DNA of 64,000 bases from an uncultured Alphaproteobacteria bacterium (GCA_910588255.1 CAJUOM010000002.1:15470-79469); one strand, 5' to 3'; positions 17,607 through 24,615 are shown, counted from the stretch's first letter. Program-made: numbers and translations. Notes: a model not told the origin generated them from the sequence alone.

Positions 17607-19670
<2,064 letters not shown>

Positions 19671-19687
19671 ATTGACGGAAAAAATCT

Positions 19688-19711
19688 CTAAAATTTTATG
19701 GGACTTTTTAA
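19688..19711 (+). repeat. solo copy of the 24-nt motif CTAAAATTTTATGGGACTTTTTA(A)
   Basis: A 23/24 match to the motif in the repeat promoter modules. It lies just after ligA and 320 nt upstream of the pfk pseudogene. No clear -35/-10 follows. Confidence 0.7.
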
Positions 19712-20034
19712 CAATCATTATCTTTTAGACCAGAGATTATATCACATAAATAGAACCTGGCAAAGGAAATTTCGCAGTAACTTAAACTTTTTTATTCAAA
19801 ATCTGATCAAAAATTACATTTTTTATATAATTTTTAAACCGTTATTTTTTAATATTTAGATGGTTTTAAACAACATCGATCGGTAAAATTGTATTTTAAT
19901 TCATAATTATAAAGATATTTAACATATTTTAAATTAAAATAATTTTGTTTAAATTTTGGTAAAATTTTTATTATTTTGTTTTCTAAAGTTTTATAATTTT
20001 ATTAAGATAATTCTATTTCTGGTAATTTGGGATA

Positions 20035-21186
20035 ATGATTTTTAAGTTTGTCTTAACAATTGTAGGTAGTTTTTTAATTGCATTTGGAAATATAACAAAT
20101 GCAATTTCCGCAGAAAAACCTAGGATAGGAATATTAACCTCCGGAGGAGATTGTTCTGGGCTAAACTCTACAATATATGCGACTTATAAAAAAGCAACAG
20201 ATTTGGGATATGAGGTTATAGGTTTCAAACATGGAGTCCACGGATTGGTAAACTGAGATTATATTGTTTTGAATAAAGAAATATGCACACCGGATATTTT
20301 AAGAAAAGGTGGAAGCATCTTAAAATCCAATACAAAAGCCTTAAAAGACAAATTTGGAAATCCTTTATCAAAAGAAGATGGAGACAAAGCCATCATTCGA
20401 GAATATCATAAATTGAAGCTACAAGGATTGATTTATATAGGAGGAGATGGAAGTATCGGATTAATGAAAAATATACTTCAAAAAGACCAATCCTTAAATA
20501 TCATAGCAATTCCGAAAACAATAGATAATGATATCGCAAACACAGATGTTTCCGTAGGCTTCTCAACTGTAACAAAAGTAGTGGAAGAAGAAATTTCAAA
20601 TATAATAACAACAGCACAAAGTCATAGTCGAATTATGGTAATTGAAGTTATGGGAAGAGGCGCGGGATACATAGCCTTAAGTTCAGGATTGGCAATTGGT
20701 GCAGACGCGATAATTATCCCTGAAATGAAATGTAATATGAATAATCTTATTGCAAAAATTAAAGATGTTTATAATTCCGGAAAAGATTATAGTATTATAG
20801 TTGTGTCAGAGGGAGTTGAGTTCGATGAGTTTAAATATAAAAATACGAAATTCTCTGACGTTATTTCAAGGAAAGACTATGGAGGAGTTTCTAATTTTAT
20901 AGTTAAAAAATTAAAAGAGGCCGGATTTGATGCCAAAGCTGTCATACTGGGGCATACTCAAAGAGGTGGAATCACATCTGTTGAAGACAGAATTTTAGCT
21001 CAGAAATTCGGAATAACAGCTGTTCAATTGATCGCAAACAAAGATTGCGGATATTTGCTGGGAATTCTGAATAACAAGATTTCCAAAACAAAGCTTTCAG
21101 ATATAAGAAAAACAACGAGAAATTTAACTCCAAATGATCCTAATATTATCTTAGCTCAAAATTTAGGAATTTATATAGGCGGATAA
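20035..21186 (+). pseudogene. 6-phosphofructokinase paralogue interrupted by an in-frame TGA
   Basis: ORFs 20035-20256 and 20269-21186 are in the same frame, separated by a TGA at 20254-20256 (GLVN*DYIVLNKE). PFK motifs GGDCSGLN, GGDGS, PKTIDND and MGRGAG are present. It carries an unusual hydrophobic 28-aa N-terminal extension. Confidence 0.7.
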
Positions 21187-21227
21187 AAAAAGAAAAAGCT
21201 ATTTTCAAATTAGTGTCACAAAGCATC

Positions 21228-21266
21228 ATTTCTAGATCATCAACATACCGGAGATGATCTAGAAAT
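21228..21266 (+). terminator. 13-bp perfect inverted repeat downstream of the pfk pseudogene (possible terminator)
   Basis: ATTTCTAGATCAT / ATGATCTAGAAAT with a 13-nt loop. The trailing T-tract is weak. Confidence 0.35.
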
Positions 21267-21380
21267 TTACTTGTGTTATATAGTCTTTTGCTCACAAAAG
21301 TTTTCAGAAAAAGTCGAAAAATTCTCCACGTATGAAGAGTGTAACTATTAAATATAGATTATGAATACTTGAAAAACTCA

Positions 21381-21457
21381 TGGCGCGCCCTGGAGGATTC
21401 GAACCCCCGGCCCACAGCTTAGAAGGCTGTTGCTCTATCCAGCTGAGCTAAGAGCGC
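21381..21457 (-). tRNA. tRNA-Arg (TCT)
   Basis: 77 nt. The reverse complement is GCGCTCTTAGCTCAGCTGGATAGAGCAACAGCCTTCTAAGCTGTGGGCCGGGGGTTCGAATCCTCCAGGGCGCGCCA. Anticodon loop CTTCTAA. Confidence 0.9.
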
Positions 21458-21539
21458 TTATATAATTATTATACACATTTTGATCTTAAATACAAGAAAA
21501 AAGAGCCTCAAAATGAGACTCTTTAGCTTTCAGCATATT

Positions 21540-21896
21540 TTACCAACCAGCACGGGGACCATATTGTTGTTCCAATGCCTTAATAAAATCCGAAACATTA
21601 GTTGTTAATCTAGTGTCTGAGTATATTCTAGCTTTCAAAAAACCTAAAACTTCACTAACTCCGTTTTGGTAACGTTGTTGAAGTTGCGGTTGCAAAGTCT
21701 GAACTTGATGCTCTGCTAATGTTTTTGCTTGTTCCACAGCAGTAACACGCTGTTGTGCTGCTATTGCATCTTCTCCTAAATCTGCGCCTCCTATCTTTAT
21801 AGCGGCTAAACCTCTAAGCTTTGCTCGCGCATCATCTCTTTCATCTGCTAGAGTTCGAATTTGCGTTTGCAGTTGTACTGATGAATTTGCAGGTTT
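21540..21896 (-). CDS. GC-richer Ala/Gln-rich coiled-coil ORF, in frame with the upstream beta-barrel gene across a single TAA
   Basis: The frame is open from 21896 with no ATG: KPANSSVQLQTQIRTLADERDDARAKLRGLAAIKIGGADLGEDAIAAQQRVTAVEQAKTLAEHQVQ...YGPRAGW. The only candidate start is the GTG at 21737. Composition is clearly GC-richer than the surroundings. Confidence 0.3.
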   Translation of the reverse strand, partial: KPANSSVQLQTQIRTLADERDDARAKLRGLAAIKIGGADLGEDAIAAQQRVTAVEQAKTLAEHQVQTLQPQLQQRYQNGVSEVLGFLKARIYSDTRLTTNVSDFIKALEQQYGPRAGW

Positions 21897-22937
21897 TTAG
21901 GATTGCGCTGCTGACGGAATAGTTTTTGATGTAATTGTATTAGTAGAGATAGGCCTTTCCTGATGTGGAAGAGGATCAGCAGATTTTTGTGGTGCAGGCA
22001 ATGTCGATGCGGGGATAGTTGCAGACGTAGGGACCGTCATCGTTGTCGATCGCTTTTGCGCCGCAAGTTGTGCAGCATATGCTCTCGCTGCCGCCATTCT
22101 ATCTGCTGTCGTACTCGCCTCAGCTTTATCTATATAGCTTGAAAAAACAGCTAACATTGCGGTTGTTAGTAATATTTTTTCATAACTTCCTCCTGCGACA
22201 AAATTTCTTTTCAAATGTCCTGATTTTTTCGTTTTTAAATAATAATCCCCTTCAAAGCGAATGAACGTATTGGGGCATCTCTGCAAATATTTTTCAAAAC
22301 CAAATCCCAAAACAGGAGTAAATCTCGAAAGTTTCAAACTCCCTCCATGTTGAGATATCAACTTCGAACTGACATGACGAACGCCTACTCTTCCATAAAA
22401 CACAGCATTCAATTTTTGACAAATCAACCCAAACTTAACTACCAATGTCGGATTGATCCCTCGAACTTTGTGTGTTATATTTCCAAAGTTACCATCTGTT
22501 GCATTTGAACTATATACAAAAGTAGGGTACAAATCATTAGTTGAATCAACCTGAGGTGTATCATTTTTAACTTTTTTGCTATTTTTTGTCATATCCAAAG
22601 TCAAACTCAAGCCTGTGTAGATTTTGTCTTTGAAAACTTTTCCATAACCGACTGATAAATTTCCTTCAAAAAGCCTGGACTTATTCCTAGAAAATTTGTT
22701 ACTAAATGTTCGGGACAAAACCCTAGTATCAGTAGATGGATTTACATCCAATTTGTCATCATCAACGATATCATCAGCGACAGCATCAGAACTAGTCAAT
22801 CTATGACTTTCGAAGATAGGATTTGAATTGTGAGCGGATATACCAACACCGGCAGATATATTAAATCCTGAAAAATGCTCTGCAGACGCACAACTCAAAG
22901 CAGAAATGGTTAACAAACCTATAACTTTATAGTACAT
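21897..22937 (-). CDS. outer-membrane beta-barrel protein (OmpA-like/surface-antigen type) with a foreign-looking C-terminal extension
   Basis: A signal peptide (ISALSCASA) is followed by alternating beta-strand patterns ending near FIRFEGDYY...GGSYEKI. After that, from ~22165 downward, comes an Ala/Thr/Pro/Gln-rich tail encoded by GC-richer DNA. Confidence 0.5.
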   Translation of the reverse strand: MYYKVIGLLTISALSCASAEHFSGFNISAGVGISAHNSNPIFESHRLTSSDAVADDIVDDDKLDVNPSTDTRVLSRTFSNKFSRNKSRLFEGNLSVGYGKVFKDKIYTGLSLTLDMTKNSKKVKNDTPQVDSTNDLYPTFVYSSNATDGNFGNITHKVRGINPTLVVKFGLICQKLNAVFYGRVGVRHVSSKLISQHGGSLKLSRFTPVLGFGFEKYLQRCPNTFIRFEGDYYLKTKKSGHLKRNFVAGGSYEKILLTTAMLAVFSSYIDKAEASTTADRMAAARAYAAQLAAQKRSTTMTVPTSATIPASTLPAPQKSADPLPHQERPISTNTITSKTIPSAAQS

Positions 22938-22990
22938 AGTTAGTCAAAAAAAACACTTTATATATTATAATTCTACTATTTTTTTTGATT

Positions 22991-24163
22991 TCAAGCTTTA
23001 TTTGAAAAAACTGCAATAATTTTTTCAAAGACAATTGCAAAGATGCCATTCCCCAGGACATTACACATAGTTATCAATGGGTCAAATAATATATAGAGAG
23101 CAGTAACTAACGCCAACATATCAGAAGACAAACCAAGATAATTTTGCATAACAGGCAACATAACCAAGACACCTCCCCCAGGAATCGCTGCTACGGCAAA
23201 TTTTGCCAAAACAAAATGCAATGCAAAAATGAGATACTGATCAAAAGTCGGTTCCATTACACCAAAAGACTTCATGGCAGCAAGAGCGATCATTGGTATG
23301 AAAAAGCAATCCCCAACAAGATGAATATTCACTGTCGCAGGAACTATTATTCCCGCATTGTTTTTGTCTTTCAAATTTTTCTCTGCAGCTTTTATTGAAA
23401 GAGGCAATGCCGCAGCGCTTGACATCGCTCCAAATGCAGTTATTACAGCCGGTGAAATATTCTTTAGATAAAAACCCAGTTTGGAAAAATTAAATTTAGA
23501 AACCAATATGAATTCTATAAATGCCGTTCCATAAGCAGAAATTAAAAATATGATTAATACAGGAAAATACTGTCTGAAAATTGATTGCAAGATCCCATCA
23601 TGTTCCAATTTCAAAATAGTTCCCATAACAAAAAAAGGCATCACGGGTATAAGAAATTTGAAAAATATCTTAGTAAATCTGTCAAAATACTCAGAAATTT
23701 TCGATGTTAAATTAGGTGCAAATATACCAGAAATTAATCCAGATAAAACCCCAAACAAAAGAGAAAAATCATTTGAAATTATATTTTCTAATTCTAACAC
23801 AAAACACGGTTTCAAATCCATCCCAGCTTTACTTTTCAATGTATTTAAATCGAAATTTAATAAATTAACAGAGGAAAGATAAGAAAGCATAGTATTCAAA
23901 AAATTCGAACAACAAATAAGTGAAATTATTATCGCTATATAACGAAAAGCTCTTGCTCCTAGCTTTGAAATTGAAGAAAAAACCAAGAAAAATATAATAA
24001 ATGGCAAACAAAAAATTAATATATTCTTAATGGATAAGCTAACTGAATACAAAAATGATTTTACGTTTATTGATATAAAATCAGCAAAAAACAAAGAAAA
24101 AAGCAATACCCCTAAAAAGATAAGAGGCATTGCAAAGCTTTTCATTTTCGAGCAAAATCCCAT
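22991..24163 (-). CDS. dicarboxylate/amino acid:cation symporter (DAACS family)
   Basis: 390 aa, multi-TM. Has the motifs MSSAAALPLS and IPGGGVLVMLPVM typical of GltP/SstT/TcyP-type carriers. Confidence 0.7.
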   Translation of the reverse strand: MGFCSKMKSFAMPLIFLGVLLFSLFFADFISINVKSFLYSVSLSIKNILIFCLPFIIFFLVFSSISKLGARAFRYIAIIISLICCSNFLNTMLSYLSSVNLLNFDLNTLKSKAGMDLKPCFVLELENIISNDFSLLFGVLSGLISGIFAPNLTSKISEYFDRFTKIFFKFLIPVMPFFVMGTILKLEHDGILQSIFRQYFPVLIIFLISAYGTAFIEFILVSKFNFSKLGFYLKNISPAVITAFGAMSSAAALPLSIKAAEKNLKDKNNAGIIVPATVNIHLVGDCFFIPMIALAAMKSFGVMEPTFDQYLIFALHFVLAKFAVAAIPGGGVLVMLPVMQNYLGLSSDMLALVTALYILFDPLITMCNVLGNGIFAIVFEKIIAVFSNKA

Positions 24164-24168
24164 ATAAA

Positions 24169-24615
24169 TTATCTCTTTGAGAATTGGAACCTTCTACGTG
24201 CTTTTCTTCTTCCGTATTTCTTTCTCTCGACAACTCTCGAATCTCGTGTCAGGAATCCCGTTTTTTTCAAAATTCCATGCAAGTCAGGTTCGAAAGCATC
24301 AAGAGCTTTGCTTATACCATGACGTATAGCCCCGGCTTGTCCGGATAAACCACCTCCAACAACCGTGCAGTAAACATCATATTGCCCTTCCCTACTTGTT
24401 ATAACAAATGGCTGGGCTATTAACATACGAAGAACTGCTCTGGCAAAATAAGTATCTTGATCCCTGCCATTAATTAAAATTTTTCCGGAACCAGGCTTTA
24501 TCCAAACTCTTGATATAGAACTCTTCCTTTTTCCCGTTGCATAAGCTCTTCCTTGAGCATCAAGTTTCTGTTCTCTTTTCACAGGCTCATTTGCGATATT
24601 AATATCTTCAATCAC
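24169..24615 (-). CDS. rpsI: 30S ribosomal protein S9
   Basis: 148 aa. Has GGG.SGQAGA.RHGI.KAL, ends in [10 protein letters not shown], and follows the rplM-rpsI order. Confidence 0.9.

Follow-up and report, generated by a model that had tools for sequence, protein, structure and literature searches.

In a 64,000-nucleotide stretch of DNA from an uncultured alphaproteobacterium (hereafter the window; the genome to which it belongs comprises 978 kb in 48 contigs), a gene for an apparent outer-membrane barrel changes character part-way along and runs, in its own reading frame, into a tail of very different composition beside a tRNA gene. This locus raises the question of where the tail came from and whether the fused product is a working protein. 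The earlier note on this DNA had proposed that a fragment of foreign DNA integrated at the tRNA, became fused to a resident surface protein and was then truncated by a stop.

A reading frame of two compositions

The fused open reading frame (ORF) lies on the minus strand at 21897..22937, from an ATG at 22937 to a TAA at 21897–21899, and encodes 346 aa. Its first ~248 residues are AT-rich in coding and rich in Lys/Asn/Ser, and they open with an N-terminal signal peptide that was read straight from the sequence (MYYKVIGLLTISALSCASA-EH). The switch from barrel to tail falls at ~22180–22115, where the product reads ...KAEASTTADRMAAARAYAAQLAAQKRSTT...PAPQKSADPLPHQ..., and from ~22180 downward the same frame continues as ...GGSYEKILLTTAMLAVFSSYIDKAEASTTADRMAAARAYAAQLAAQKRSTT...PAPQKSADPLPHQ.... 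Past the TAA, this frame runs on uninterrupted for exactly 118 more codons, as far as a second stop (TAA, 21540–21542). These 118 open codons are not due to chance: only 0.035% of shuffles of the stretch remain open, and the other five frames each contain 4–10 stops. The TAA and the open codons behind it had been described correctly in the earlier note, and so had the adjacency to tRNA-Arg(TCT) (21381..21457, minus strand), although the second stop is separated from the tRNA by 82 nt rather than 80. A terminator-like hairpin followed by a T run (21500..21524, minus strand) lies just past this second stop, which is the original stop of the tail gene. A search of the locus against Rfam returned no match but the tRNA.

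The neighbouring genes in the window are ligA, pfk, SDF permease, rpsI, rplM and tdk. An adjoining pfk paralogue is split by an in-frame stop, both in the window and in independent assemblies.

The intact locus in related lineages

The comparison rests on two related lineages, namely G001, a MAG and the closest relative, and a lineage from a macaque gut metagenome project (PRJEB22765; PMC6137240). In G001, rpsI and the SDF permease gene are followed by a 286-aa barrel gene ending ...DGYVVRLALGRSF* and by two tail genes: tail1 (MKKILLTTAILAVFTGYIDNAKAADRLAALRAQLLAKQQQQ..., ~143 aa), which starts four bases after the barrel gene, and a second paralogue, tail2 (MRKILLTTAILAVFAGYIDNTTATTAADRLAALRA...), which is cut off by the contig end. 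Another G001 contig opens inside an array of 84-nt tail2 repeats and carries the end of tail2 (...EVLAFLKSRL...QALKQQYPSYNW*), then tRNA-Arg(TCT). The order in the macaque-gut lineage is rplM, rpsI, SDF, barrel (304 aa as called), tail1 (147 aa), tail2 and tRNA-Arg(TCT), with a tail2 of 387, 408 or 415 aa depending on the sample and a 28-residue repeat of variable copy number. The intact barrels of both lineages terminate in ...LALGRSF. In both lineages the tail genes stand apart from the barrel gene, each with its own ribosome-binding site and signal peptide, and lie between it and tRNA-Arg(TCT), a downstream neighbour that is conserved in the window as well. The two tail paralogues of a given relative are nearly identical over their first ~50 codons. 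These separate genes bear out one part of the earlier reading, namely that the tail belongs to another gene, which was joined in frame to a gene for a surface barrel and then cut by a stop.

The identities of rplM, rpsI, SDF and the barrel gene placed the window and G001 as sisters with the macaque-gut lineage outside (for SDF, 92.8% versus 84%), and the window barrel is 86% identical to the first 250 residues of its G001 ortholog. With this branching, the intact three-gene state is ancestral and the state in the window is derived; likewise, because both related lineages have tail genes in this place, these are resident genes and ancestral to the group. The tails have diverged strongly, with 40–46% identity between the window and G001 as against 86–99% for the neighbouring genes. 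Barrel homologs in other genera (G023, G015 and RUG14145) had no tail genes downstream, and thus the pairing of barrel and tail is restricted to the window's group. The members of this group are gut-associated alphaproteobacteria with genomes of ~1 Mb.

Lesions separating the window from its closest relative

Alignment of the window with the DNA of G001 revealed a 125-bp gap in the window. In G001, this gap is flanked by two copies of AATTTTGTYGC lying 125 bp apart, one inside the barrel gene (GGAATTTTGTCGCGGATGG) and the other in the spacer (AAATTTTGTTGCAGGAGG), in the contexts ...AAAAGGAATTTTGTCGCGGATGG... and ...TTTTTAAATTTTGTTGCAGGAGG..., respectively; the window keeps one copy of this direct repeat (AATTTTGTCGC) at the deletion junction (22195..22205, minus strand). 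The missing 125 bp correspond to the last 37 barrel codons, the stop codon and the first part of the spacer. What is left of the OmpA-like barrel gene (22194..22937, minus strand) retains the signal peptide MYYKVIGLLTISALSCASA and ~248 codons and is without the terminal hairpin and the ...GYVVRLALGRSF end.

The former translation start of the tail gene now lies inside the fused ORF (22175..22193, minus strand) and consists of GGAGGA (22188–22193), an ATG (22181–22183) and a run of six A's (22175–22180). One base fewer follows this ATG in the window (ATGAAAAA-ATATT) than in G001 (ATGAAAAAGATTTT), and the window's tail ATG reads ATG AAA AAA TAT TAC TAA, which leaves the start of the tail gene out of frame. 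The 126 bases missing in total bring the barrel frame into phase with that of the tail. What was once the tail gene's signal peptide (KILLTTAMLAVFSSYIDKAEA; 22116..22178, minus strand) has become an internal hydrophobic segment; its counterparts in the alignment are MKKILLTTAILAVFTGYIDNAKA and MRKILLTTAILAVFAGYIDNTTA in G001 and MRKTLSLTTAILAVFMSYDVNA in the macaque-gut lineage. Transcriptional slippage at the A6 run was considered; six A's are short for slippage, and the other lesions would stay unmended.

The first part of the tail body (21900..22115, minus strand) contains a conserved ADRMAAARA motif, a Gln-rich stretch and a Thr/Pro-rich linker, and it is the GC-richest DNA of the window. 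It is ended by the premature TAA (21897..21899, minus strand), which aligns with an AAA (Lys) codon of G001 tail2 (window GCGCAATCCTAAAAACC, tail2 GCGCAATCCAAAACGCC); the surrounding residues are SAAQS*KP in the window versus SATAQSKTP in tail2. The second part (21543..21896, minus strand) comprises the 118 open codons, which encode coiled-coil-like sequence and the conserved C-terminal block EVLGFLK...ALEQQYGPRAGW of the long paralogue, and it has neither tandem repeats nor a usable start. Reassignment or read-through of TAA was ruled out, as the tail frame itself stops at TAA 21540–21542, where tail2 of the relatives ends, before the terminator.

The window has one tail gene where G001 has two, and it is without the 84-nt repeats. 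The 25 nt upstream of the tail ATG match G001 tail1 at 22 of 25 positions and tail2 at 12 of 25, whereas tail2 alone matches the block GCGCAATCC(T/A)AAA and the entire C-terminal domain; the window's one tail gene is thus a hybrid with a tail1 5' part and a tail2 3' part. The locus accordingly combines disabling lesions with intact, separate orthologs in relatives, the combination by which pseudogenes and fusion remnants are recognised. Intermediate states, such as the deletion without the nonsense change, were not found.

Base composition and the case for foreign DNA

The shift of the barrel ORF into GC-richer DNA, on which the earlier note had built its proposal, was confirmed. The GC content of 21540–22170 is 0.433 relative to a window mean of 0.309 (z 3.55), a level reached by only 0.05% of equal-sized windows, and across the entire 64 kb, GC measured over 200 nt peaks at 21951 (0.505). 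When GC was broken down by codon position, however, the values at positions 1/2/3 were 0.48/0.60/0.30 for 21900–22181 and 0.61/0.42/0.20 for 21543–21896. The excess of the tail is confined to positions 1 and 2, and its third-position GC (GC3; 0.30 and 0.20) compares with 0.22–0.28 in the neighbouring genes, which indicates that the GC peak is a matter of amino-acid composition and not of foreign base composition. The higher GC stems from codons for Ala, Gln, Thr, Pro, Arg and Glu, while synonymous sites match the AT-richness of the rest of the genome. As a practical lesson, GC peaks in genes for Ala/Gln/Thr/Pro-rich proteins should be checked at third codon positions before horizontal transfer is claimed.

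That a GC-richer foreign fragment integrated at tRNA-Arg and was joined to a resident barrel gene is very improbable on this and other evidence, and a recent integration is refuted. The idea draws on the position of the tail, the most GC-rich part of the window, beside a tRNA, on the change of gene order directly after the tRNA in all three lineages, and on the restriction of the tail family to a genus-level group, which would allow an old acquisition by the common ancestor; tRNA adjacency, deviating G+C and lineage-restricted genes are indeed what the locus shares with tRNA-linked genomic islands. It differs from such islands in nearly everything else. Both related lineages have the same genes, separate and intact, in that position, and GC3 is that of resident genes. 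Integrases that target tRNA genes insert at the tRNA 3' end, but the tail lies on the 5' side of tRNA-Arg(TCT). The earlier note had suggested looking for a direct repeat of the tRNA 3' end as the mark of an attachment site, but this end has no second copy in the window: searched as a 26-nt pattern with up to 3 mismatches over the whole window, it was found only in the tRNA itself. No relevant repeats were found in 19000–24500, and no integrase or other mobility gene was present among the neighbouring genes. As read from the alignment with G001, the fusion came about through the internal 125-bp deletion and not through an insertion. That the fusion and the TAA are artefacts, whether of contig mis-joining or of an erroneous base or homopolymer, is extremely unlikely. 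The window sequence is MAG-derived, the one-base difference falls in an A run and the tail2 repeat array broke the assembly in G001, all of which might raise suspicion; yet the exact 346-aa product is encoded on 15 contigs from different runs (NCBI, ENA and Logan assemblies), and seven of these, independent assemblies that derive from no fewer than two read sets, show 100% identity with the window across 921 bases (21380–22300), a stretch that takes in the junction and the A6 run, the TAA with the 118 codons downstream of it, and the tRNA. Given this identity, the locus is no assembly error.

Loss of the terminal hairpin from the barrel

Neither the window ORF nor its close orthologs had a direct match in Pfam or NCBIfam, and no match to PF01389 or PF13505 above the curated cut-off was obtained for the window ORF, the G001 ortholog or a further homolog (P0002). 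P0005 (23.2 bits) and P0010 (27 bits), two homologs at a greater distance, do exceed the PF01389 (OmpA_membrane) cut-off of 21, and the link of the window ORF to this family is thus transitive only. An exhaustive HMMER search with the G001 ortholog recovered 89 relatives, some of which score above the OmpA_membrane cut-off. The AlphaFold model of this ortholog, based on 36 aligned sequences, was a beta-barrel with a mean pLDDT of 82.9 and values of 91–96 over the last 40 residues, and its Foldseek matches were all outer-membrane barrels (OmpT, Pla, OmpA, Ail and FadL; probability 1.0, TM 0.3–0.6). The predicted barrel identity of the window gene is in this way supported indirectly. With OmpA-like/OMP_b-brl barrels (PF01389, PF13505) it shares the N-terminal signal peptide, the antiparallel barrel of its ortholog and the aromatic end of its orthologs; it differs in its long loops (286 aa) and, in the window copy, in the missing last hairpin and aromatic end.

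The hairpin lost by the window corresponds to residues 250–286 of G001. Its pattern, K..GY.VR....(F/I) with an invariant Arg, is present in 35/35 other aligned homologs and absent only from the window ORF, and the terminal strand with its aromatic end is found in G001, P0002, P0003 and the other aligned homologs and is deleted in the window. Its place is taken by the former signal peptide and then by helix-prone, low-complexity sequence. The BAM machinery recognises the terminal strand or hairpin of a barrel with its aromatic end. Without this hairpin, the 346-aa product would not be expected to form a closed, BAM-inserted barrel, and, judging from its anatomy, it is therefore most likely a non-functional remnant.

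An eroded remnant or a new chimera

We consider it likely that the segment is a fixed, lineage-specific and eroded remnant of a three-gene envelope/surface locus, in which a truncated barrel is read into a hybrid tail that has lost its start and its repeats and bears a nonsense codon. The ancestor would have had a barrel gene with the canonical ...GYVVRLALGRSF strand, a short tail gene, a long tail gene and tRNA-Arg(TCT). Each tail paralogue would have possessed its own ribosome-binding site, signal peptide, ADR(L/M)A..RA motif, Gln/Thr/Pro-rich linker and coiled coil, and the long paralogue also 28-residue tandem repeats and the conserved ...EVL.(F/Y)LK...QY...W end. A deletion of 125 bp between the two AATTTTGTYGC copies, probably by slippage or illegitimate recombination at the short repeat, would have removed the barrel end, its stop and the start of the spacer; the loss of one base right after the tail ATG would have put the tail start out of frame and the fusion in frame. 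The single tail gene may be the product of unequal recombination, for which the first ~50 codons, nearly the same in both paralogues, offer an obvious substrate. The 84-nt repeats would also have been lost and a Lys codon (AAA) turned into TAA, presumably recently, since the 118 codons behind it are still open.

Reduced genomes of symbionts and pathogens, such as those of Rickettsia and Mycobacterium leprae, contain fused and split pseudogenes that arose by deletion between short direct repeats. The window locus shares with them the junction repeat, the lost stop and spacer, two genes read as one, further frameshift and nonsense lesions, and decaying genes nearby, and differs in nothing essential. 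Its fate is that of ordinary gene decay in a symbiont-like genome of ~1 Mb, and a decayed locus fits its surroundings, given the split pfk paralogue close by. The one-base loss happens to restore the frame, and hence the remnant looks like a designed fusion. The locus offers a clean and fully reconstructable case in which a short-repeat deletion and the loss of a single base, in a genome that is losing genes, mimic a designed fusion with a seemingly foreign tail.

The alternative is that the fusion is a functional new chimera, in which the first ~248 residues fold into a periplasmic beta domain or a smaller barrel, with the former signal peptide and the Ala/Gln/Thr/Pro linker as a new C-terminal appendage. 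We regard this as unlikely, and hold the same low expectation of a chimeric product that is tolerated or even useful. In its favour, the fusion keeps the reading frame and is fixed, without variation among the independent assemblies; this fixed state in all samples counts against a remnant, as do the promoter-like site and ribosome-binding context that remain at the barrel gene. The loss of one complete hairpin leaves an even number of strands, barrel and tail genes adjoin one another in each of the three lineages, a confident barrel core persists when the fused ORF is modelled with AlphaFold, and a barrel followed by a Pro-rich hinge and a periplasmic domain would resemble OmpA. The chimera would, however, have to do without a hairpin that every other aligned homolog has kept. 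The strands modelled at residues 265–290 reach a pLDDT of only 56–81; we regard them as imposed by alignment columns on the helix-prone sequence ADRMAAARAYAAQL, and as evidence neither for nor against closure of the barrel. In addition, a tail that has acquired a nonsense codon and has lost its repeats, its paralogue and its own start points to several independent degenerative changes at one locus, and an in-frame outcome had a prior chance of 1 in 3. Were the chimera real, it would imply that the barrel and tail proteins normally work together, as in a Rosetta-stone fusion. It is quite improbable that the in-frame fusion was such a tolerated or useful Rosetta-stone event, with the barrel as anchor or export partner of the coiled-coil proteins in one envelope/surface structure of these reduced, gut-associated alphaproteobacteria; if it was, the tail family would be a new kind of variable surface coat.

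Reach and likeness of the tail family

Searches of Pfam and NCBIfam with the barrel remnant and both tail parts gave nothing significant, and a PDB profile search with the tail gave weak coiled-coil matches only (E > 0.06). Word-indexed searches of 5.8 billion proteins, using the read-through tail and the intact 415-aa tail2, returned the same lineages only. Across 41 genomes of the family and order, a profile of the tail family matched in G000 and G001 only, apart from one weak coiled-coil match, and the family was found in none of the other 39. The tail family could be an old acquisition, or it could evolve too fast to be traced.

In the relatives, the intact locus consists of an OmpA-like barrel gene and genes for two orphan coiled-coil proteins with signal peptides and 28-residue repeats, the copy number of which varies between samples, and it is a candidate variable envelope/surface system of an uncultured gut lineage. 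By analogy only, these intact tails resemble streptococcal M-like proteins in having a signal peptide, a long coiled coil and tandem 28-residue repeats, in the variation of repeat copy number between samples (387/408/415 aa) and in a very fast divergence of sequence. They differ in having no sequence or family relationship to M-like proteins, in their Gram-negative host and in the absence of a cell-wall anchor. As for the fused ORF of the window, annotation pipelines will call the 346-aa chimera a real protein, and it is already present in public protein collections.

Gene content beyond the tRNA-Arg(TCT) gene

In all three lineages, the 3' terminus of tRNA-Arg(TCT) marked the precise point where the common gene order stopped, and what lay past it was different in each. 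The window, from position 21381 downward, continued into a convergent phosphofructokinase (pfk) paralogue, the closest relative, G001, into ssb and dapB (L015, its second contig, 740-1300), and the macaque-gut lineage into rpsF, rpsR and acpS (locus L034, 7974-8500). In addition, four Logan contigs ended within tRNA-Arg(TCT). The 3' side of this gene looks like a rearrangement hot spot. The pfk paralogue (window 20035-21186, + strand) was split into two ORFs of 73 and 305 aa, and both pieces were also called, unchanged, in independent assemblies; it is a further decaying gene, directly adjoining the barrel-tail fusion. Between the end of this paralogue and the 3' end of the tRNA gene lay a perfect 14-nt inverted repeat (ATTTCTAGATCATC / GATGATCTAGAAAT; window 21228-21266) with a loop of 11 nt.

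Paralogous tail genes in the relatives

When compared within a lineage, tail1 and tail2, the short and long coiled-coil paralogues between the barrel gene and tRNA-Arg(TCT), were almost identical over their first ~50 codons (2383-2460 and 2839-2920 on L010, from G001; L034 5936-6080 and 6576-6720), while the remainder of the two genes was unrelated. This shared start comprised the signal peptide and an ADR(L/M)A..RA motif. Such a pattern suggests that the 5' ends have undergone concerted evolution or gene conversion. The long paralogue of both relatives also contained 84-nt (28-residue) tandem repeats (L015 1-358; L034 7387-7592), which were equal in period between G001 and the macaque-gut lineage but different in sequence. 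Its product varied in length among samples of one lineage (387, 408 or 415 aa), and the G001 assembly was broken by the 84-nt repeat array.

Upstream of the barrel locus, and separated from it by a few genes, the macaque-gut relative encoded a 1502-aa protein whose N-terminal domain is related to IcmF (L034 1-742). This protein hints at a secretion system in this reduced-genome lineage.
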